A DNA stretch of 64,000 bases from Neolecta irregularis DAH-3 (taxonomy: Eukaryota): assembly GCA_001929475.1 (NCBI GenBank), contig LXFE01000119.1, positions 1 to 64,000 on the forward strand. The letters are read 5' to 3'. Shown piece after piece: positions 10,331 through 61,910 of this stretch; the stretch's first letter is position 1, and the number at the start of each line of letters is the position of its first letter. Under the pieces are notes generated by a model. That model searched no databases. It was given only the letters and a program-made list of their open reading frames with translations, and had not been told where the DNA came from. Made by a program: the position numbers and the translations under genes.

Positions 10331-12982
10331 ATGGCCGCAATTGCAGAGAAACCCTCCGGTCAGATGGCCCAATCGCCTATTATGGGTCCTTTGAGAATGC
10401 TAATTCTCATTCTTATTGCGGGTGTGTTCTCTAGTTAGATCGAGGGATTCATCTTGGTTCAGGAGCTGCCATTAGTTCGCGTTTGTTTTCGGTCATTCGA
10501 TTTGAGTCAATTATTCACGAGGTATGCTTTTGAAGCTTTTTCTCTGGTTAAAATCTAGTTCGATCCTTGGTTCAATTATAGAGCATCAATAAAGTTGGTT
10601 GAAGACGGCATCTATGTATTATCACACATTAACTCTACATTAGACTTATCAGAAAGGAATTTTGGAATTGGTTTGATGAACGCAGTTGGTATCCGCTCGG
10701 CAGAGTTGTGGGAGGGACATTGTATCCCGGGTTGATGGTCACGTCGGGTATCATTTACAATTTTCTTCAAAAGATCAACCTTCCCGTGGAGATTCGCAAT
10801 ATCTGTGTTATGCTGGCTCCTGGATTTTCAGGACTAACCGCTCTTGCAACATATTTCTTCACAACGGAAATGAAGAACGAGTCAGCTGGACTCTTGGCTG
10901 CTGCATTTGTAGGCATTGTTCCAGGTTTTCTTTCCCAGCTGATGATATCTCACTACTTCAAGGTTATATTTCTCGTTCAGTAGCTGGCTCCTACGATAAT
11001 GAAGCAATTGCAATCACTCTGCTCATGACGACCTTTTTCCTCTGGATCAAGGCACAAAAGACCGGATCAGTCCTTTGGTCAGCGGCGACCGCTTTATTCT
11101 ACTTCTACATGGCCGCCGCATGGGGAGGTTACGTTTTTATCACAAACATGATACCATTACATGTCTTCGTTCTTATCCTCATGGGCCGTTTCTCGAACCG
11201 AATTTACGTCGCATATTCAAGCTATTATACCCTTGGGACTTTGATGAGTATGCAGGTCCCTTTTGTTGGCTTCCAGCCGATTCGAACAAGCGAACATATG
11301 GCTGCAATGGGTACTTTCATGAATCAAGGTAACTTCTTTAATGATGAAAGGAATATTCGGACTTGTCCAAATCATTGCCTTCGTGGAACACATCCGTTCT
11401 CATGTACCCCAAAATCAGTTCAAATCACTTCTCCGCGCAGTTATCTTCATTTCTTTCATTCTTGCTTTTGGAGCATTGGTCACACTAACTCTTTCTGGGA
11501 TTATTGCTCCTTGGACTGGCCGATTTTATAGTCTTTGGGATACAGGCTATGCCAAAATCCACATACCTATCATTGCATCAGTTTCTGAACATCAGCCAAC
11601 GCCATGGCCAAGTTTCTTCTTCGATTTATCATTCTTGGTCTGGCTATTCCCTGTTGGCATTTATTTGTGTTTCCGGGAGTTGCGAGATGAACACGTATTC
11701 GTCATTTTGTATGCCGTTATGGCAAGTTACTTTTCCGGTATGACAACTTCCTTGAATCCAACTTATCTGAGGCGTTATGGTACGGTTGATGCTAGCTCTT
11801 ACTCCATGTGTCTGTGTTGCGGCTGCAATGGCTGTTAGCAACCTACTCGAAGTCTATCTCGACGCCAGTACTCCTGTCATCGAACCCGCAGAATCCATGC
11901 CAGAAACTGGTGTAGACACCGCCAAACAACATAAGCCCCGAATGTTCCGTCTCTTCAGAGGTCTAGGTTCTCAGGACAGGATTATAGGAATCTTCAATCC
12001 AATTGCTAAACTTGGCGTCGCCTCCACTTTCGGTCTTTTCCTTGTTCTATTCGTCTATCATTGTACCTGGGTCACTTCCAATGCGTACAGCGCACCATCT
12101 GTTGTCCTTGCCTCAAAAATGCCCGATGGAAGTCAACACATCATCGACGATTTCCGCGAGGCTTATTCTTGGCTACGGAAGAACACAGACTACGACGCGA
12201 GGATCATGAGCTGGTGGGATTACGGCTACCAAATCGCAGGAATGGCCGATCGAACTACATTGGTTGACAACAATACCTGGAATAACACACATATCGCTGT
12301 ACGTCTTTTATTTATGACGAATGTTAATAGGCAGACTGTAGGAAAAGCTATGGCTTCCAGCGAAGAAAAAGCATATCCTATTCTCCGACATCATGATGTG
12401 GACTATATTCTTGTAATTTTTGGAGGTTTATTGGGGTACTCTGGAGATGATATGAATAAGGTTTGTGCTCAGTCTTAAAGAAGTTGTCCAATTATCTAGT
12501 TTCTCTGGATGATAAGAATTTCTGAAGGTATCTGGCCAGATGAAGTAAACGAACGAAGTTTCTTCACGGCAACCGGCGAATATAAGATTGATGAAAAGGC
12601 TAGCGAGACGATGAAAAACAGTCTGCTGTACAAGATGTCTTATTACCGGTATCATATCATGGATTTGATACATATCTCTGATCTTTCAAGTTTTAGCGAA
12701 ATATTTAGAGGACAAGATTGTATCGATCGTGTCAGAAATCAAATAGTTCCGAAAGATGGCCCCAAACTAACCCATATCGAAGAGGGTACATGTTACTTGT
12801 GATACAATAAATGACATTTCGCAGCTTTCACTTCTGAAAACTGGATTGTGCGGATATATAAAGTCAAAGATCTGGATTCGTTGGGAAGAGAGCATTCTTC
12901 CGCTGTTGACTTTGAGCAAGGGAAGAAGAAAAGGAGAAGAAGCTTAAAAAAAGGTGCCAGAACGTTGAGAGTTGATATATAG
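10331..12982 (+). CDS. STT3: Oligosaccharyltransferase catalytic subunit
   Basis: [33 protein letters not shown] and [11 protein letters not shown]; 10 short introns. Confidence 0.98.
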
Positions 12983-13469: not shown

Positions 13470-14965
13470 ATGGCACTGGAGTACATTAGAACTCTACACC
13501 AATTGCTTTCTCATATCAACAAATGTATCTTAACAAAAGACGGCGAAGGGCTTTCGCGTGCTTTTCACCTTGGAGCACCACAATTTTCAGCTCCAATAGC
13601 ATATTCAGCCAGCGAAGCTTCCGGAGAACGAGAAATAAGATCCGACTTGAATGATAAATCCTGGACGGATCCTGTGCTTACATTGTGGAAGGCTATCGGC
13701 GCCTTGGGACGGGAAGAGAATTACATCAAAGTTTTAGATGAACTGAGTATTTTGTTACAGTTTATCCCTTCCTGCTTCAAACCATTGAAGCTGATCAACA
13801 AGACAAGTACTGCGAGGATTTATGGTTTGGGACGCTTGGGCTTTACACGTTCTTTATGTTGTTTGCAAAGATCTGAGACGGTTTGCATTGATTGTGCTTT
13901 CCCGTTGTCAAAGCCGATGTAACTGACTTTGTGAGGTAGATCGACAACTTCAGAAATCTGGAAAGAAGGCTGAACGGCTCGAGGAAGCAGCTAGAGCCAT
14001 CAATAAAGCCTTCACTCTTTGCATTACGGATCGGTACGTTTCTAATGAAGCCCGGACTTACGCTATAGAGCGCCCATGGAAGAATCAAGGAAATGGGGAT
14101 CATTGTGTATTGCTGGAATTCTGTTCAAAATTTACTTCAAGGTATCTGCAGAAATTACTCGCTCATTAATTCGTAGCTGAATCGGCTTCCGCTATGTAAA
14201 AATTTGCAGCGGAGTATGACCGTGTCGGATATTCCTCCGCTAGAGTATTTTCCCAAGGCACATGTAGTAACATATCGATACTACACAGGCGTTTTGTATT
14301 TTCTGAACGAAGAGTATAGAAAGGTGCAAGTCTTTGACTATTAAAGATTAACGAGACAGTCTGAAGAAGAATTGATGGCAGCATTGTATCAGTGCCATCC
14401 AGAGTCACTGCGTAATCAGGAGTACGCAATGCTTGACTTAATCCGAGATACTCATATTGACAGGTTGATACTGACTTATCTAATTCCTACTCTCCTCGTC
14501 ACATCCCACAGTAGACCTAAACCAGCTCTCTTGAGCCGCTTTCCGAATCTTGAACGACTCTACTCGCCCATAGCAACAGCTCTACGTTCAGGAAACCTCC
14601 GGGAATACGATCTGGCCCTGGTCGCCGGCGAAACTGAATTCATTACACGAAGAACGTATCTTACCGTCGAACGTGCACGAGTTTTGGCAGTTCGAAATCT
14701 TTTTCGACGGACATGGCTATTGTCTGATACAAATACCAGGCTAAGTATTGAAACTTTCCGGGTGGCTTTACAGGTGTCTGGGATTAGTGTCGATTTGGAA
14801 GAAGTGGAGTGTATGTTGGCCAATATGATTTATAAGGTATCTCCATGATCTGAAAATGCTGCTAATAATCAGGGATATGTAAAAGGTTATATTTCCCAAG
14901 AACGCAGTATGGTTGTCCTTAGTGCAAAGGAGGCTTTTCCCTCGGTCGTTCCTGGATTCCCCTAA
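13470..14965 (+). CDS. PCI-domain protein, Csn12/PCID2(Thp1) family
   Basis: CITDRAPMEESRKWG, TYRYYTG and EVECMLANMIYKGYVKGYISQE; 7 introns. Confidence 0.9.
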
Positions 14966-21338: not shown

Positions 21339-24261
21339 TCAAGCAACGGAGGTGATCATCGCCATTGGATAATCCTCATCCGGATGAACTATTTGATAAT
21401 TAAATCTAGGCGGACCAGAAATAAGTAGAGACATTTCAGCAAACATAGAGTCCAATGAAGCCATTGCATATGGTGGATTCTCATATAACGATGATAATCG
21501 ATCGACATTAATAACAGTATTTCGAGAGTCATCTTCGAATGGAGTGTTTACCGCGGCTTTAGATATGCTGGAGCCGTAGATAGCTGATAACCCTTTTGTG
21601 CGTATTTTTGATGATTTGCAAGGGGTGTCTGGAAGCAGGGATGAAGATGTTGGGATGATGGAAGTTATTTGTGCAGAAGCGGTGATTGCTAGAAACGAAG
21701 ACGATGCGAGCGATTGCATGCACAGGACAGCGGTAACCGGTGAGTCGAAAACATGAGTGAACGCCGGTTTCGAGGACTCTATATCGAAAAGAACAACTTT
21801 ATATTCTAAAGTTAGTTTTGGTGAAAAAAGAAGAGTGGGTACTTGAATCTTTAGTTACTTGAGAAACTGCAAACCAATTTCTTAGAGTGTCAATAGCGAG
21901 GTTTTGGACATTGGCAAGGACTTGAAATATGATGTTTCCTGAAATCAAGTCAAATATATGTAACCCCTGAACCGAAAGGACAACTAGTTTTGTTCCTACA
22001 AACCCGATTTCGCGGATTGACTTGGATAGGTGAAAGACGCGTTGCACATTTCCTGTTTCTGCGTTTACAACAACTGCAGAATTCATTATTCCGAAAGCGA
22101 GGAGACTTGTATCTATGCACCAAGCTATGCAACTTGCATGTCGTTCATTAATGAGAGCTCGACGACCGTATCCGATTACACGACGACAACTCCAACAAAT
22201 TTCTTTTTCGATTCCCGATTTTTCTTGTTTTGTCTTGGGTTTCCAAATTTTTAAAAGGCCATCTGCGCCGACGGTTGCAAAGCCATGGTTTGTAGGACAT
22301 GGAATGACTTGATGTACTTTTCCATCTGTTCCATGAGGCGAATCAACTCGTGTATTTTGATTCCATTCATTCTTCTCTGTAGACCATTGCCAAAACTTGA
22401 GAAATGATTCGAGGTGCCCTGGTTGGTGTGTAGGTACCCATTCATCAACCGTGGCCATCCATTTCCCATCCGAAGAAATAGAGACGTGAGTTACACTCGG
22501 TTCAACGATTTTCAACCCAGATATCCCGCTTCTTCCTGCTCTCGTAGCTTTCGAAACTTGGAGACAGTAGACAGTCTGATCTAGGAACGGGTCAAATGCT
22601 TGGATATGTGTAGTCGATGACCCTGGTTCGATTCGGGAGGCAATGACAACGTGGTTTGACATGGGATGTATACATGCCGGAGTCCTTTCGGCTTTCATCG
22701 AAGCTTGTATTCCAGTGATTTCTTTAACTAATTTCAATCCCATCGCATTGATAATTTTAACAGTATTGTCGATCAACTGCACTGCGTAGAGTGTACTATT
22801 CAAGTTGACAGATATAGAAATGATATCTGTGCCCACACGCGGTAGAAATCGTCGATACCCGGAATCCATCTGCCACAAGACTAGAGTACTTTCATCGCCC
22901 CCAGATAGTAAATAACTGCCTGTTTTGTTAGAATTGTTTGTTGACAACGAGATACCATCTAGAGCCCATTCAATATCCCCGATTTCGCGAGCATGCCAAT
23001 GAAGGTTTCGGGAATATGCGTCTCCGCCATTGAATACATTGTGCCAAATATGAATTTTCCCATTGGCGTCGCTGATGGCTACGACTTGGTCTGCCACTGA
23101 CACTTTGCGAAATGCAGCGTTTTGTCGGGTGTTTGGTAATTTGAAATCGAGCCATTGTCGTTGTTTATCCGTCGAGTGGATGGGACTGACTGATAATTTG
23201 GCAGTCGTGATTAAAGCTATATGGGAATGCGAGACGTCAAAGTCTGTAAGCTGGTCGCAGTCTATAATTTTCTGGGATCTGTGGACTGAGAGAAATTGTT
23301 TTTTGGGGCTGACTGATGAGAGAAGGGTGTCTGTCAAAGATACTGACAAGAGTCGAGTTACAGATCTATGGGGTTGGGCTCGAGATGATTCTTCTTTCCG
23401 GCGTTTTTGAACAGTGAGTGTAAGATGGACTAGTCGATTATCATTCTTGTCAAATTTGGCGTCTCTGATGGGCCAGGATAAGTCGAATTTCCGTATTATA
23501 TCGCCAGTCCGCCAGTTCCATAGGATGATGTGACTGTCTTGAGAGAATGTAAAAGTTTCGTCTGCGTTTTCGGGATTCAATTTGAGGGCTGTGATGTTTT
23601 TGAGATGGCCAAGGGTATCGAGACCTAGAATCCGCACGACCAGTCCAGTTTGCACAGAGTATACTTTAACTTTTGGCCCAGTCGCTATTAGAATGAATCT
23701 ACTGTTTAGTATTGGAAATTATATAAAGAAGCACTCGTTGTCTGTTGAAAAAACAGGTTTTAATCGATTAAAGGTTCCTCCAACAACTCTATCGATGGAC
23801 CATGAAACAGGCAATTTTACAAGATTCTTTGGTTTTTTAGGATTTTTGTCTTGAGGAGTTGGGGATGATGTGGATTGGGAGTCTACGGGATTGTCTAGAT
23901 TGCCGTTGAGGGGGGAAGTGATGGCGGGTATATGTTGATCTGAATGTTTTTTGCCTCGGTTTCTCGGTTTCTTTGGACGAACAGATTGATCGTTTGACGT
24001 TTCTGCAGCGACGATTCCAGTGGAGTTTGATTCAATTTCTTTCTGAGGGTTTGATTCCATTTTGTTCTGTGGTTTTAATTTTTTCATTTTTCGCTGTGGT
24101 GTGGATATCACCATCTTTCCCTGTGGTTTTGATGTTTTTCGCAGCGCTTCTGCTATTTCCATTTCTCCCTCTGGTTCTGATGTTTTTATTTTTTCCTCTT
24201 GTTCTTGTATTTCCATTTTTCTCTCTGATATTTCCACTTTTTCCTCTTGTTTTGATTTCAT
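21339..24261 (-). CDS. UTP17: U3 snoRNP / UtpA WD40 protein (WDR75) with repeat-expanded N-terminus
   Basis: LHWH, YLLSGGDESTLVLWQ, FLPRVG, WMATVDEW, LKFW and TRVDSPH; 3 introns. Start codon inferred. Confidence 0.9.
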
Positions 24262-24358: not shown

Positions 24359-24701
24359 ATGATTGTGCCTGTGCGGTGTTTTTCCTGCGGAAAGGTGACT
24401 GCTCTTTGCAGCACGACTGACAGTAGGTATGATGGTATTGTATCTATACTGATGCAGGTCGTTGGGGACAAATGGGAAGAATATCTCGGACTGTTGCAAA
24501 AAGACACTACGGAAGGGTACGATTTATTTTATATGTGCTGAGATTAGGGATGCGCTTGACCGGCTGGGATTGAAACGATACTGCTGCCGGCGGATGATAC
24601 TGACTCATGTTGATCTGATTGAGAAGATTCTCCACTATAATCGTGTGCTGCCGGTGTGATTTGTGCTGACTGCAGAATTCGAGCGGGCTAACCGGCACTG
24701 A
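24359..24701 (+). CDS. RPB10: RNA polymerase I/II/III shared subunit RPABC5
   Basis: [21 protein letters not shown]...[19 protein letters not shown]. Confidence 0.98.
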
Positions 24702-36689: not shown

Positions 36690-37205
36690 AATCGAAGACG
36701 GACAGTTATCTTTGAATCTCGTCGTGTCTGCTTGAGAGAATGCTAATGTAACGATATACCATTACCAATGTGCCTAGTGACTTACTAAAATAAGGAATGG
36801 GTATAAAATATGACTTGTATCCAGCTTGGATTCTTGTAACTTGATCTAGGTACACATCCCATAGATTCTCATAATTTAAGCTAGAAAAATATAACCTGGC
36901 TTCATTTGCAATCAAAGATCTCATCTTTCTCTTAAGGACAGTTGAGTAATAAAACAAGATTTGTGTCTTACTATTCTGTAAGTGTGGATACCTCGCTCCT
37001 ACAATGAGTGTGCCCACTTGCCTGCCCGTTGTACGCGGGCTGTCTTCACCAAGAGATCCAAAATGAGTGCAGAATGTGAAAGACTATTCAGCCAAGCAAC
37101 AAAACTGATTACTGATGAAAGAAATCGTCCTGGGAATGACACTATTGAAGCAGATGAATGCCAGAATAACTGGCTGCTTTATGGGCCTTTTTGTAAATGG
37201 TAATG
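36690..37205 (+). mobile_element. Degenerate hAT-family transposase remnant
   Basis: MSAECERLFSQATKLITDERNR...TIEADEC..NW matches the hAT C-terminal dimerisation motif. Upstream LNLVVSA resembles the hAT HxLNLxV motif. Interrupted by stops. Confidence 0.75.
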
Positions 37206-37644: not shown

Positions 37645-40623
37645 ATGCATCTTTCGCCAAAAGAGATTGATAAACTTTTGATATCACAGGTATGATTTGA
37701 TCTGTGGTTATGTTGAATATTAGACTGGATGGTTAGCTCAGAGGAGACTTGCTCGTGGGGTCAAATTGAACCGAGCAGAAGCAATTGCCCTTATTGCATC
37801 ACAATTACATGAGCGAATCAGAGATGGAAGCACAGTTAGCCGTCTTATGGACGAAGGAAAGAGACTTCTTGGGCGGAGACATGTTCAAGTCTGATCACTC
37901 TCATTTGTAATGAAGAACTAATGACATAGATAAATGTGGTTAATGGATTGAGCGAAGTTCAAGTTGAAGGGACATTTGAAGATGGGACCTATCTTGTCAC
38001 TGTTCATAATCCGATATGCACGGATGATGGAGATCTCGAAAGTGCGCTTTATGGGTCATTTTTACCCGTCCCGTCCAACGATATGTTTCCTCTTGTATCT
38101 GAAGATATGTATGCGTCATCATCTCAGCCAGGTGCAGTCAAGGTCATAAAAGGAGTTATTCCTCTCAACGAGGGTCGGAATCGCATCAAGATCAAAGTGA
38201 TGAATAAAGGAGATCGGCCGATTCAAGTTGGATCGCATTATCATTTCATCGAGACAAATTCCAGCTTGGAATTCGACAGAATCGCGAGTTACGGTCGAAG
38301 GCTTGATATTCCTTCTGGGACAGCGGTTCGTTTTGAGCCAGGTGATATGAAGACTGTTTTACTTGTCGAAATTGGAGGAAACCGTATCATTACGGGTGGA
38401 AATAACCTTGCCTCGGGCCCGGTATCTTCACACCGGACCAATGATATCCTTCTCAGAATTCAACAGGCTGGGTTCTTTCACGCTCCATCACCAAAAACAG
38501 ATCTTGTTCTTCTACAGACTCGGACAATCATGGACCGGGAAGCTTACGCTGAGATGTTCGGACCAACGACTGGAGACCTCGTACGTTTAGGAGACACAGA
38601 TCTGTGGATCCGTGTGGAGAAGGATTTCACTGTTTACGGAGATGAATGTAAGTTTGGAGGTGGCAAAGTGATTCGAGATGGAATGGGGCAAGCTAGTGGA
38701 CGGACTGATAAAGACTGCTTGGATTTGGTTATCACGAACGCATTGATTGTAGATTATACCGGGATCTACAAGGCTTGTTCTTTCGTTTCAACGACGCTGC
38801 TTATCTGACGATAGGCGGATATAGGGATCACCAATGGAATGATTGTTGCTATCGGAAAATCTGGCAATGAGGATGTCATGGATGGCGTTACTCCTGGGAT
38901 GACTATAGGAAGCAATACTGATGTCATCGCGGGAGAAAAAAAGATCATCACTGCTGGAGGCATCGATTCGCATATCCACTTCATATGCCCGCAACAAGTT
39001 GAAGAGGTATTAAGGTTTCTTGAATCGCTTCATAACTTTCAGAGCATAACTTCTGGGATCACAACGTACATTGGGGGTGGAACAGGACCAAGGTTGTCTT
39101 GAGAAACATACTCTAGATTGATGTGACCAGCACCGGTACGAAAGCGACAACGTGCACTCCTTCCGCAAACTACATTAGATCTATGCTTCAATCCTTAGAC
39201 ACTCTTCCAATCAACATCGGGATAACTGGAAAAGGAAATGATACAGGTTCTGCAGGACTTCGAGATCAAGCTGAAGCGGGAGTTATCGGATTGAAGCTAC
39301 ATGAAGACTGGGGAACTACTCCATCTGCTATCAATACTTGCTTAGAGTGGCCACTAAGTTTCTTTAACAAAGCTAAGTATTGAAGGGTTTGCGATGAATA
39401 TGACATTCAGTGCCTAATACATACGGATACGCTTAATGAGAGTGGATTTGTTCAAAGCACAGTAGATGCATTCAAGGTATGTTTTTTGCATCAGCTCAAG
39501 GCTCATGGGCCAGGGAAGGACTATTCATACGTATCATACCGAAGGCGCTGGCGGTGGCCACGCTCCCGATATTATCTCTGGTCTTTTTCTCTTGGTTCCC
39601 CCGTTCATGAGCTAACTCAGCTAGTTGTCGGACTTTCGAATGTTTTGCCTTCCTCGACAAATCCTACTCGCCCATTTACCTGCAATACCCTTGATGAACA
39701 TCTTGGTATCTCCTTTTCTAAATGATCTCTCTAAAGTGTTGAGATATGTTAATGGTATGTCATCACCTTTCGAAATCAATTCCAGAAGACGTCGCATTTG
39801 CAGAATCAAGGATTCGAGCTGAAACTATCGCTGCCGAAGATGTACTTCATGATATTGGGGCCATATCTATGATGTCTTCAGACTCTCAGGCGATGGGGCA
39901 TTGTGGAGAAGTCATTCTTCGAACATGGAAGACTGCTCATAAGAACAAGGTCCAGAGAGGAGTGCTTCCAGAAGAATCCGCCGATGGAGATAACTTTAGG
40001 GTGAAAAGGTATATCAGCAAATACACTATCAATCCAGCAATTGCACATGGGATGAGCCACTTGATTGGAAGTGTTGAAGTTGGGAAATTAGCTGATCTAG
40101 TCCTCTGGGAGTTTGAATCTTTTGGTTGTAAGCCCGAAATGGTCATTAAAAGCGGAATTATTACATACTCTCAGATGGTAAGCATTCCGCTAGGAATGAT
40201 TTCAATCAACTAAAGTCTCAAGGGTGATTCGAATGCTAGTATTCCGACCGTCCAACCGGTATGATGTCATATATGACACAGCCATCTCTAAGAAACCAGA
40301 TCTATATGCGACCTATGTTTGGCGCATTTCTTCCTTCAGCACATGTTACGTTCATGTCTCAAGCTGCCGTTAATAATGGTCTTGACAAGGTTTATGGTTT
40401 GAAAAAGAGGGCAGAACCTGTCAAGAGTTGTCGACGAATTGGAAAATCTGAAATGAAGTATAATGATGCTACGCCCCAGATGAAAGTTGACCCGGATTTA
40501 TATCAAGTGCGCTTCTGATGTTTTTACTGATCTGATTATCGATAGGTGTTCGCTGATGGTGTTTTGTGTGAAGCAGAGCCCTGTGACAAGTTACCCCTTA
40601 CAACTGCATATTTCTTATATTAA
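37645..40623 (+). CDS. URE1: Urease (fused gamma-beta-alpha, eukaryotic type)
   Basis: [60 protein letters not shown] and SSDSQAMG; 12 introns. Confidence 0.98.
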
Positions 40624-47319: not shown

Positions 47320-49096
47320 TTACTTAAACGCTCGCATTAGTCGAAGGGTTTCATCAGTAAGCCATTTGACATCCTCTCTTGGATACCAACATTCATCATA
47401 CGAGAAATTGACAAATGCACGACCATTGAATCCCGTGATATGAAGGCTTGTTTCTTTACCGCAGAACTACGAATTAAGTCTTAAAATGAATGCTGGTCGA
47501 CGAACCTTGACCCCCGTTCCAACATCCCTAACCATAAGACTACCCGGCAGTTTTGACTTTGTCGGAATGACTCTTTGGTAATATTTATCAACAAGCCCGA
47601 CAGAAGACAGGTAAGGCATTTTGTCAGAGTCGGCAGGCGTCTCCGCGTCAAGCTCTAGAGTCTTTAGAACGGTTTCATGAGACCAGTTTAATGTATTGGG
47701 GCTTTTCAATGCTATGGATTAGTCTATATGTAAGAAAAGAAAAGCGCACCGCTATTCCAATTCTGCTTGCTCTCGGCAGCAGCTTGTTCTAGAACAAGCT
47801 GATCATCTTTTCCTTCAAAAGTGTCGATTGAAGTAGAAGAGGGAAAGAAAACAAAGGAGCATTGGAAGTGGTGAGTAGCATTTTTGTAAGGCGCTTTGAA
47901 ATGAGGGCGACCGTTGATGATATTGAAGGGCCAAATTTGGTGAAGAGTATCGGGCGATTTGCCAGTCTTGCGCGATTCCAATTTGTAACAGGCGAGAGAG
48001 AGAGCAGCGTTCATGGCTTGTGTTATAGTATAACCCTAAGGTTAGAGGCGCGAGTTATAAGCAAAACCTTTGCTTTCCAGGTCTTACGAATGGCATCAAA
48101 ATCTTCTTTTTCGATAACCACGGTATAGTGTGAAGACTTTGCCATCGTAGGTTTATAATCTTTGGGTGATAGGTTGGTATAAACCCCTTGGGACGGCTAG
48201 AATTTAGCATGCATGGTGTGAAGCCGTCACACACTCCTTTAGAAACAAGATTCTCGAAATGAGTATTGAGCTCATCGACAGTTTCTGCGGAAAGAGGCTC
48301 CCCTTCCTTTCGAATTCCGAATTGCAATGGAGCCGAAGGGCTAAGGCGCTCGGGCTCGCCAGCAAAGTCCCAGAGAGCTTGCTTCGGGACTCCCTTGGCA
48401 ATAAGTTTGAGCATACGGCCAAAGAAAATGTGTCCACCAATGCCATCACTCTACTGAGTCAAAACTCGACTCTCTTCAAGGGAAGAAACCATGACATGAT
48501 TGCACGAAATTCCAAGGAAATGATCACCAGTCGTATCATTCTGCACGAATTTGAGCCGAAAGTCCACATGCTTTGGCGATTTCGTTTCCTGACCCTCAGC
48601 AGGCGTCACTTCTGTATGGCAATGGGATGGATCAAGGAGATAGGTCTGAAAATCGGCCAGCGAAATTCCACGTTTCGATGCGTCCATGACTTCTAGAGAC
48701 CGCTCAGCCCAAGCATCAATATCAGCCTCCGATCTGGGCCGTTCGTATCGGAGGTACCGAGCCTCAAACGGCCCATTGGCATTGACGGATATGTGAGGCG
48801 AAGTTCGTCTCATTTCTTTCCACGCAGTCTTCACACGACTAGGAAAGTATCAGACCAGAATGGATCTAGGCAACGCACCAGATAAGCTCTTTGCCAGAAA
48901 GAGCAGATGGTGGAATGTGAAAAGTGACATGAGTGGCGGCGGAGTAAAGCTTTCAGATTAGACATAGAACGGAGGAGCATACTCCTTGCGCAGCAACATT
49001 TCCAATGTCCATGAGGAGCTCGGTTGCTGCTCGGTCGCGAACATAGACATCGGGATTGTGTGCAGATTGGCGCCAAGAGAGTCTGACTGATTCCAT
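47320..49096 (-). CDS. CoA-dependent acyltransferase (HxxxDG; Tri3/condensation-fold-like)
   Basis: Spliced product MESVRLSWRQ...YVRDRAATE...AWKEMR...CNHVMSDGIG...LSSVGLVD...FSYDE; 7 GT-AG introns keep the frame. Confidence 0.75.
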
Positions 49097-56125: not shown

Positions 56126-57052
56126 TTAAGAACTCAGTCCTTTGAAGAACTCGTTATACGCTTGTTCAATGTCGAAGAGCATCTACACATTAGCTTCTCT
56201 TATTATAAGCCTCACCTGACGGCTCTGCTCTTCGGTGATCTCGTCCGCTGCATTCATCTGGTTGAGCTTAATGAGCCTGATTATGAATTTATTAGCATAA
56301 AATAATATCATTACCAATTGACAATCTTAGAACGTCCCTGGAATTCTTGAACTGTAACATTATTCAGGCTGGTTATAAGATCTGACAGGAGAGGATGTAG
56401 CTGATCCTTTGCACTGTACTTGAGTTTTAGCGCGTCCATAAAAGTTATAAAATTCTTGGTGGTAAACAGGCGATTAACAGAGGACAGGAACACCTGAACA
56501 GCTTCTGCCACTTCTTTTGCAGATGTACCAGTAGTTATTGCGACGGAGTCAGCACCAGCATGTTCAACAGTTACTGGCACTCCAATTTTGAGGCGATAAG
56601 ACGCAGATGAGTATGATACCTTCTTGTAAGCCAAGATAAGTACAAACGATCCAAATACTTTATAGCCATTCATAAAAGTGTCGATGTCTTTAAATTTGGC
56701 CGCTACTTCCGGCGTCTTCAGAATCGATTTATATTGTGTGAGCAGACGTTGACATGTTGTAGCATATCTTTAACCTACTTAGAATATAGATCCCGTGAAT
56801 CATACCTACTGTGCCTGATTGACTGTGTCCCTTGTGTACGCTTTTTCCAGAAACTCGAGAGATACAATGATGGAGTATAATTCGGCCAGATCCTCGTAAA
56901 TTTCTCGTTTTGCGGAAGTTGTATATAACTTGACCTCCTTTAAATCAACTCTCATTCCCAGAATTTCACTGGACCTCGTCCAAGGAAATATTTGAAGCTA
57001 ACGGCGGCGAAATAATCGACGATGTAGGAGCATATGGGGTCTGTCGAGACAT
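56126..57052 (-). CDS. VPS28: ESCRT-I subunit
   Basis: LDEEVKLY, LAELYSII..LEFLEKAY, NFITFMDALKL..AKDQLHPLL and LFDIEQAY; multiple introns. Confidence 0.95.
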
Positions 57053-60628: not shown

Positions 60629-61844
60629 ATGGAATCACGGTCAATTTCCACTCCAACCCCTGCCAACCTCTCTTTTTCTATGTCATCATCCGCGCAAGAC
60701 AATAATACAGACCAACATGAAAGTAGCTTTCTTGCAGAAACACCTCTACAGCACAACCAATCATCATATCATCAAGACCTGCAATTTGAGCAGGATACAT
60801 CTAGCATTGAAAATATTAATTCCCCAATTGCATCTCCTAGCAAAACTCCAGTACGCATACAAGAGGCTATTCCCACAGACCCAACTTCTCTCTTGTCGTC
60901 CATTGGGTCCACAAATGACGTTATTAAAAGCGTTCTTCTCAAAGACCCCACGCTGAGCAGGCCAAACTTTGACCAAACGGAAGAGTCGATAAACTTGGAT
61001 GGTATTCCTTTGCTTAAGAACGACGGTACGACAGCGCTCCCTCTTCAGACATCCCCATCAAAGTTTATGTCGATTACGTCTTCTTCAAGTCCTAGTAAAG
61101 TTTCATCACCGTCAAAGGTTCCATCGAAGCGACTTACCCCAGGAACGCACCACCCTGATAAACGTAGGAGATTAGATGAAGTCAGAAAGACTCTCCACAA
61201 GCCCTTTCGTTCACCCCTAGTAATGTCATCTTGCGAAATCCGACCGACAGTAAATACGCAATTTGCAAGTCCTGAACAAGAACACATGCCTTGCCAAAAT
61301 ACAAGGGTCACTCCGCAAGGAAAACGCTTTCATAACTTTTTCAAAAGCCCCCTGTCTTCTTCAAAGACACTAAACCCGGAGACCCAATCTCTCCAAAATC
61401 GAGCGAGAGAACTCGATAAAGTGATTACTCAAGCTAGAAAAGACATAGAGCTGGCTAAAACAGCATATAGCTACGAGTTGAAGGTATTACATTCTACCCT
61501 CTTTTTTCCTGACAAGATAGAACGAAGATTTACGTCTAAAAGAACTAATTCAAAAATGGAAATTAACATCTCAGCAAGCTGCGGACGACATTTACGCTAC
61601 TGTCTCTGTGAGGGTGAATGCAGCGGGTGGAATCTCCGCGCTTCGTAGTTCAGCGTGTCAAGAAAACTGGGGCTGGACAGAAGACGATAAGCCTTCAGTC
61701 CAAGTCACTAGAAATGCTTTTGATCCTCCCCCAAGCAACGCTCCTGAACCGAAGCACAAATTTACAATGGAGATGATGCTTGAGCAACTGAGTATTCCAT
61801 TTGAGACTATCGGGTGGAATACCAACGCAGGGTATTGGGAGTGA
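60629..61844 (+). CDS. Sfr1/Mei5-family recombination mediator
   Basis: LHKPFRSPL; after one intron LKELIQKWK..SQQAA...NWGW...FTMEMML..LSI...IGW. The start may be 60680. Confidence 0.75.
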
Positions 61845-61910
61845 TTTGCAGTTGCTACTTCTTTAATTCCATGCTAGATATCGCTAAATTCACAAATTCT
61901 GAAAGAAAAA

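Follow-up and report, generated by a model that had tools for sequence, protein, structure and literature searches.

Recursive splicing through a zero-length exon has been shown in two fungal introns, the 336-nt intron of S. pombe SPNCRNA.445 (bioRxiv 10.1101/226894, the part of the preprint drawn on here) and the 375-nt intron of C. neoformans BOT1, which divides into 210 and 165 nt (bioRxiv 10.1101/224170, likewise in part). On a large scale, recursive splicing occurs in Drosophila at ratchet points, or zero-nucleotide exons (bioRxiv 10.1101/006163, in the excerpt used), and the stwintrons of Pezizomycotina and Lipomyces consist of two U2 units that are removed by consecutive reactions (sections of PMC7138796 and PMC6616335). 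The same sections of the latter article treat "abutting U2 introns excised by recursive splicing" as a type separate from stwintrons (PMC6616335). The initial annotation of the locus described here had set it against animal recursive sites and stwintrons, a background that is incomplete, as it passed over the zero-length-exon recursive splicing shown in SPNCRNA.445 and BOT1.

The locus is a 63-nt intervening sequence in the RPB10 gene of Neolecta irregularis DAH-3, within a 64,000-nt stretch of DNA (positions 1 to 64,000 of contig LXFE01000119.1) that was analyzed whole and is called the window below. As far as the cited parts of the two preprints go, its likeness to SPNCRNA.445 and BOT1 is that a 3′ site abuts a 5′ site within one fungal intron and that the final junction is the same as the one-step junction. 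Their halves are removed separately, as shown via spliceosome-bound RNA, and the introns are long for their species, whereas the RPB10 twin is known from DNA sequence alone, measures 63 nt with halves at minimum size, and sits at a phase-0 site in coding sequence. The likeness extends to ratchet points, which reportedly occur in long vertebrate introns as well, in that an acceptor adjoins a donor and the first step regenerates a 5′ splice site; however, ratchet points, as the Drosophila excerpt presents them, subdivide large introns, whereas the RPB10 units are 31–32 nt long. With stwintrons the RPB10 sequence shares being one fungal intervening sequence made of two intron-defined U2 units, but in a stwintron, on the account given in the cited sections, an inner intron lies nested within the donor, branch or acceptor of the outer one, which it thereby interrupts, and removal has to proceed from the inside out, whereas in RPB10 the units abut and either order would work. 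Since no splice signal is interrupted, the RPB10 twin is not a stwintron: the unspliced sequence holds both units whole, with every canonical element unsplit. What it contains is the abutting U2 arrangement, with ACTGAC-AGTAG/GTATGA at 24416–24432 placing a 3′ splice site directly before a 5′ splice site (the slash marks the boundary). A literature search, supplements aside, returned no description of the RPB10 twin or of twins this small. The architecture is already known, and what would be new is the 63-nt scale, the minimum-size halves, the freedom as to which half leaves first, and a position within coding sequence, in the gene for a core polymerase subunit.

The RPB10 gene has the following parts, numbered by position in the window:

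24359–24701, plus strand: RPB10 gene, four exons and three intervening sequences.
24359–24394, plus strand: exon 1, 12 residues with last codon AAG, by translation and by alignment to residues 1–12 of Rpb10 homologs.
24395–24426, plus strand: intron 1, unit A, 32 nt, GTGACT...ACTGAC...AGTAG, branch A at 24420 (intron position 26).
24421–24432, plus strand: intron 1, inner junction CAGTAG/GTATGA, where a 3′ splice site abuts a 5′ splice site; zero-length exon at 24426/24427.
24427–24457, plus strand: intron 1, unit B, 31 nt, GTATGA...ACTGAT...GCAG, branch A at 24452 (intron position 26).
24458–24516, plus strand: exon 2, 19 residues plus GG, by translation and alignment.
24517–24547, plus strand: intron 2, 31 nt, GTACGA...GCTGAG...TTAG, phase 2, needed for the homologous protein.
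24548–24642, plus strand: exon 3, (G) plus 31 residues plus C, from matches to PF01194 relatives.
24643–24675, plus strand: intron 3, 33 nt, GTGTGC...GCTGAC...GCAG, phase 1, from alignment of the spliced product.
24676–24701, plus strand: exon 4, (Q)FERANRH and stop TGA at 24699–24701, from alignment of the spliced product.

Full splicing, with the 63 nt and introns 2 and 3 all removed, gives a 71-aa product that aligns with the 72-aa Rpb10 proteins of Protomyces and Pneumocystis with 54 identities each and zero internal gaps, and that has the hallmarks of Rpb10/RPABC5 (PF01194), namely a length of about 70 aa, the zinc-ligand pattern CxxC...CC, and the motifs LKRYCCRRM and THVDLIEK. Each of 11 aligned fungal Rpb10 sequences has V13, and almost all have K12, the two residues standing side by side. 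Based on this adjacency, all 63 nt must leave the mRNA and a micro-exon between the two units is impossible. We also searched 5.8 billion proteins, in length classes of 25–81 aa and 82–2000 aa, with the open stretch 24519–24656, which covers exon 3, and obtained 721 plus 580 Rpb10 relatives, all of those listed being PF01194 proteins. Among the best matches listed from both length classes there was no exact match to exon 3, and RPB10 may therefore be unannotated for Neolecta irregularis in that collection.

The neighbors of RPB10 are a WDR75/NAN1-like gene on the minus strand and, downstream, a protein kinase gene. The WDR75/NAN1-like gene and RPB10 form a divergent pair, the apparent ATG of the former (24261–24259, minus strand) lying 97 nt from the ATG of RPB10. 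Its first ~80 codons (24025–24261, minus strand) consist of degenerate tandem repeats of 21–27 nt that encode an E/K/M-rich sequence for which Pfam gave no match.

The initial annotation had divided the 63 nt at 24395–24457, which lie between codons K12 and V13, into units of 32 and 31 nt that meet at TAG/GTATGA with no exon between them, had assigned each a full set of signals, and had stated that removal of one half alone breaks the reading frame. These claims were borne out throughout: the coordinates and motifs are correct, donor, branch site and AG are complete in both halves (ACTGAC and TAG in unit A, ACTGAT and CAG in unit B), the inner junction is free of an exon as judged from K12 and V13 being neighbors in the aligned homologs, and the computed products show the frame to be lost with either half. 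Removal of unit A alone gives ...GKV followed by a stop (GTA TGA), because the inner donor GTATGA itself carries an in-frame TGA, and removal of unit B alone causes a frameshift with a stop after 50 residues; retention of both units keeps the frame open and lengthens the protein by 21 residues. On reading the sequence, the AAG that ends exon 1, once joined to unit B, forms AAG/GTATGA, which is again a 5′ splice site.

As a standard of comparison we used 26 accepted introns from the window, comprising ten urease introns obtained by exact mapping of the public urease protein onto the window, introns 2 and 3 of RPB10, and 14 introns from a conservative ORF-chaining program. They range from 31 to 45 nt (median 37), an upper bound that is partly circular for the 14 program-derived introns, as program-predicted introns of more than 45 nt were dropped before counting. 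Their donors are GTR, the third base being A in 17 of the 26, and their branch sites are yTrAy, placed 6–14 nt before the 3′ end with the branch A at intron position 22–36. The conservative gene finder called just ~22 kb of the 64-kb window coding. A self-trained gene finder, for which intron matrices had been fitted, proved overfit, chaining ~1000 false introns, and was discarded; loose motif scans yielded flat intron length distributions.

Each half of the RPB10 sequence is like an ordinary Neolecta mini-intron (31–45 nt) in its length, donor, yTrAy branch and short branch-to-AG spacing; the difference is that ordinary mini-introns stand alone, whereas RPB10 has two with no exon between them. 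The branch A is at position 26 in unit A and again at 26 in unit B, and in both size and donor-to-branch spacing the halves resemble the smallest introns of the window; the branch of unit B is 5 nt from the 3′ end, one below the 6–14 range of the 26 accepted introns. If the 63 nt were removed in one step, the branch A would instead be at position 58, so that, as a single U2 intron, the sequence departs in both length and branch position from the 31–45 nt and 22–36 of the accepted introns (with program candidates of more than 45 nt dropped beforehand). Scored with position weight matrices (PWMs) built from the same 26 introns, the outer donor of unit A, GTGACT, is weak at 2.2 bits, a value undercut by just one of the 26, and the inner donor of unit B, GTATGA, reaches 6.5 bits, with 19 of the 26 scoring lower. 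The inner branch ACTGAC of unit A scores 5.9 bits (18 of 26 lower), the inner acceptor of unit A 3.9 bits (6 of 26 lower) and the outer branch ACTGAT of unit B 6.6 bits (24 of 26 lower). The inner donor and branch thus rank in the upper half of the accepted introns and the inner acceptor in the lower third.

How often such a pair would occur by chance was estimated in several ways. A strict motif (GTR ... CTRAY/G ... AG, 27–46 nt) applied to both strands of the window found 126 candidates, compared with 109 ± 14 in shuffles, and a single abutting pair, the RPB10 twin, where 0.065 were expected and 6% of 200 shuffles held one or more. In a simulation of 200,000 random intron-like 63-nt interiors with the outer ends fixed, an internal AG/GT whose signals equaled or surpassed those of the weakest among the 26 accepted introns arose in 0.6%, a figure that falls to 0.04% at the lower-quartile threshold and to 0.002% at the observed scores. 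At the loosest PWM thresholds, abutting pairs were at chance level (46 in the window, 46.9 in shuffles), and the RPB10 pair itself drops out once every signal has to reach the lower quartile, a consequence of its weak outer donor. Because motifs alone do not exceed chance when loose, the case for the twin rests on the outer boundaries being fixed by the protein and on the quality of the inner signals. Among the loose pairs, 14107–14176 was rejected as a twin, as its first half extends an open upstream frame and is exon-like; the loose abutting pairs 10485–10558 and 36817–36880 were also inspected.

The anatomy, as far as it can be read from the DNA, is a better fit to two mini-introns, each defined separately, than to a single intron, leading us to suspect that the 63 nt are two abutting U2-type mini-introns around a zero-length exon that are probably excised in two reactions, a reading we hold with modest confidence. 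Short-intron fungi are described as pairing splice sites across the intron (PMC6616335, in the sections cited). In a fungus that recognizes introns across ~31–45 nt, each unit would most likely be defined by itself: the donor at 24395 would find its closest well-placed branch and 3′ site in the ACTGAC and TAG at 24416–24426, and the donor at 24427 would find them in the ACTGAT and CAG at 24448–24457. Two reactions would release two small lariats, and their order would be free, as removal of A first would recreate AAG/GTATGA and removal of B first would leave A intact beside exon 2. We infer the use of the inner sites, the sequential assembly and the order of removal. All three removal routes yield the identical mRNA, so that the mature message cannot tell them apart.

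U1 normally contacts a few nucleotides upstream of a donor. Simultaneous engagement of both units would therefore seem unlikely, because the 3′ site of A lies inside the stretch contacted by U1 at the donor of B, which is itself 7 nt from the branch of A. Overlap of the footprints at the inner 3′ and 5′ sites could also hinder the use of both sites.

A serious rival, although we consider it less likely, is that the 63 nt are a single intron removed in one step (donor 24395, branch A 24452, AG 24457), the inner pair being a relic or a chance occurrence that is rarely or never used. Its outer signals are of the canonical kind, the outer branch scores highest (6.6 bits), and since every route gives the same mRNA the inner sites would be free of cost and could persist unused. 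It is also general knowledge that most eukaryotes with short introns splice longer ones too. Conversely, a 2.2-bit donor, expected to be a poor competitor for a distant branch because of its weakness, would have to reach a branch 58 nt away, bypassing a well-placed branch and 3′ site on the way, and a strong donor only 25 nt from that outer branch would have to be ignored. It is for this reason, namely that a one-step route makes the weak outer donor both skip the near site and beat the strong inner donor to the distant branch, that we favor two reactions. Inner signals as good as these are moreover improbable by chance (0.04% at the lower-quartile threshold), and the accepted introns are all ≤45 nt (n = 26, after program predictions of more than 45 nt had been filtered out). 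Were the inner sites unused, RPB10 would simply have an ordinary intron with an odd history.

The dynamic-programming passes or the public urease model proposed six candidates longer than 45 nt in the window:

11738–11795: long candidate, 58 nt.
38749–38814, plus strand: long candidate, 66 nt, from the public urease model.
39066–39130: long candidate, 65 nt.
48036–48087: long candidate, 52 nt.
48449–48505: long candidate, 57 nt.
61841–61905: long candidate, 65 nt.

The candidate at 38749–38814 conflicts with protein homology, as it would delete the residues VDYTGIYK, for which the window has the codons and which at least 105 of 120 urease homologs share, and 39066–39130 conflicts with the public urease model, which has two short introns and an exon there. 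The other four (11738–11795, 48036–48087, 48449–48505 and 61841–61905; 52–65 nt) are still candidates, and as such they count in favor of one-step removal of the RPB10 sequence. At 48449–48505 a 39-nt alternative is plausible, based solely on a presumed acyltransferase motif in that gene; a Pfam search with five ORFs of the gene at 47.5–49.2 kb returned zero matches, leaving the acyltransferase motif unconfirmed.

Returning to excision in two reactions, its value would lie in scale and in partner choice. If the inner sites are used, the RPB10 sequence would be the smallest case of recursive splicing among those compared (Drosophila, S. pombe and C. neoformans), and in an essential gene; it would offer a natural test of partner choice in intron definition and a test of whether ultra-short-intron genomes impose a length ceiling on splicing. 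A stronger version of the last point, in which the spliceosome has a hard ceiling of ~45–50 nt, longer sequences are removed only as chains of mini-introns joined at zero-length exons, and RPB10 is the first visible case of genome-wide "modular introns" as well as the shortest sequence known to be spliced recursively, is a speculation that we think improbable.

The initial annotation had further suggested that the twin could act as a regulatory switch. In such a switch, half-retained transcripts with premature stops would be degraded, which would tune the supply of a subunit common to all three polymerases. What speaks for this is frame arithmetic alone, as removal of A only would lead to a stop two codons past the junction, removal of B only to a frameshift, and the 63 nt are free of stops in frame; however, any pair of introns whose lengths are not multiples of three has the same property. 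Nor is the predicted RNA folding other than ordinary, with z = −1.79 for the 63 nt (matched or beaten by 7 of 200 shuffles) and z = −1.52 for the stretch from exon 1 to exon 2 (14 of 200). We therefore regard a switch as very unlikely.

To place the K12/V13 site among relatives, metagenome contigs were scanned with the Rpb10 alignment and the best 80 of 528 relatives, chosen by long contiguous matches, were kept, 77 of which could be scored. These 80 loci are mostly unsplit genes or transcripts, and hence a sample biased against split genes and one in which close relatives are absent. Within this sample, biased as it is to unsplit genes, the K and V codons are contiguous in 76 of the 77 scorable loci. 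The remaining locus, L039, has a 15-nt GT...AG insert, GTAATCTTCACTCAG, exactly between the two codons (L039:205–220), and from its sequence this insert has the look of a tiny intron. A narrow pattern, back-translated from an 18-residue stretch of Rpb10, found 0 matches in the metagenome contigs. Extra sequence between the exon-1 and RYCCRRM words was present in 30 of the 77 loci and, where inspected, followed the EG codons, which is the position of intron 2; at the site of intron 3, the reading "HYNR..." runs on into the intron in many loci and gene calls of the database. Fungal-type RPB10 loci with both the sequence after EG and the "HYNR" read-through are the following:

L029, L038, L043–L048, L052–L055, L058, L060, L061, L064–L066, L071 and L072.

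Judged by these sequences, the positions of introns 2 and 3 of Neolecta are widely shared, and the K12/V13 site is not seen to be so in this biased sample. The same comparison leaves next to no credence for the notion that the 63 nt are unspliced and encode a 21-residue insertion in Rpb10, for although the stretch is in frame and stop-free, as about a third of random 21-codon stretches are ((61/64)^21), the insertion is absent from all 11 aligned homologs, the sole insertion at K12/V13 among the 77 scorable loci is the 15 nt of L039, complete splice signals are present at both ends, and the added residues would fall right behind the CxxC zinc knuckle, whose C7 and C10 we take to be zinc ligands.

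As to the origin of the two abutting introns, the twin may have formed by gain of a second intron at the AG/GT edge of an older one or by the appearance of new sites within a single longer intron; a lost micro-exon can be excluded, as no residue is missing. AAG/GT is the classic proto-splice site, and since the 3′ edge of an intron, AG/GT, recreates it, a second gain at the same spot would be plausible. Units A and B are not notably similar (their alignment score was reached by 31 of 500 shuffles), and no further copies of either unit were found in the window; with the units dissimilar and copies absent, nothing points to a family of mobile introns or to a duplication of recent date. The inner-junction 12-mer CAGTAGGTATGA recurs once in the window, at 56800–56811 on the minus strand, and was rejected as a second twin, being there the donor region of an ordinary VPS28 intron. 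This VPS28 intron (56768–56809, minus strand, 42 nt) has two overlapping donors, GTAGGTATGA, and continuity of the frame between the flanking Pfam VPS28 matches requires the upstream donor, GTAGGT.

Neolecta is an early-diverging ascomycete of the Taphrinomycotina. The genome article puts it at 14.5 Mb, 44% GC and 5,546 gene predictions, and states that fruiting-body RNA was sequenced (PMC5309816, the portion of the article cited here). In the main text of that article the words "intron," "splic," "RNA-seq," "transcriptome" and "gene model" are absent; its supplementary tables or methods may hold intron statistics and the annotation method.

Genomes with introns this tiny are easily mis-modeled, RPB10 being perhaps unannotated and the urease model apparently off. 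The ORF at 37930–38808 has 100% identity over 94% of its length to the urease of Neolecta irregularis DAH-3 (P0121, 804 aa), so that the window comes from that species or one nearly identical to it. In the public model the first 24 nt of the 66-nt intron at 38749–38814 (plus strand) encode VDYTGIYK. The reading that matches the homologs exactly has a 42-nt intron at 38773–38814 with a GC donor (GCTTGT...GATAG), and a 30-nt alternative with a GT donor would add four extra residues. By this comparison, eight conserved residues seem to be missing from the public model where it places an unusual intron. The sole Rfam match in the window, 5_ureB_sRNA (38672–39003, minus strand, 59.7 bits), is antisense to the urease coding sequence and most likely reflects nucleotide conservation of urease rather than a small RNA gene.
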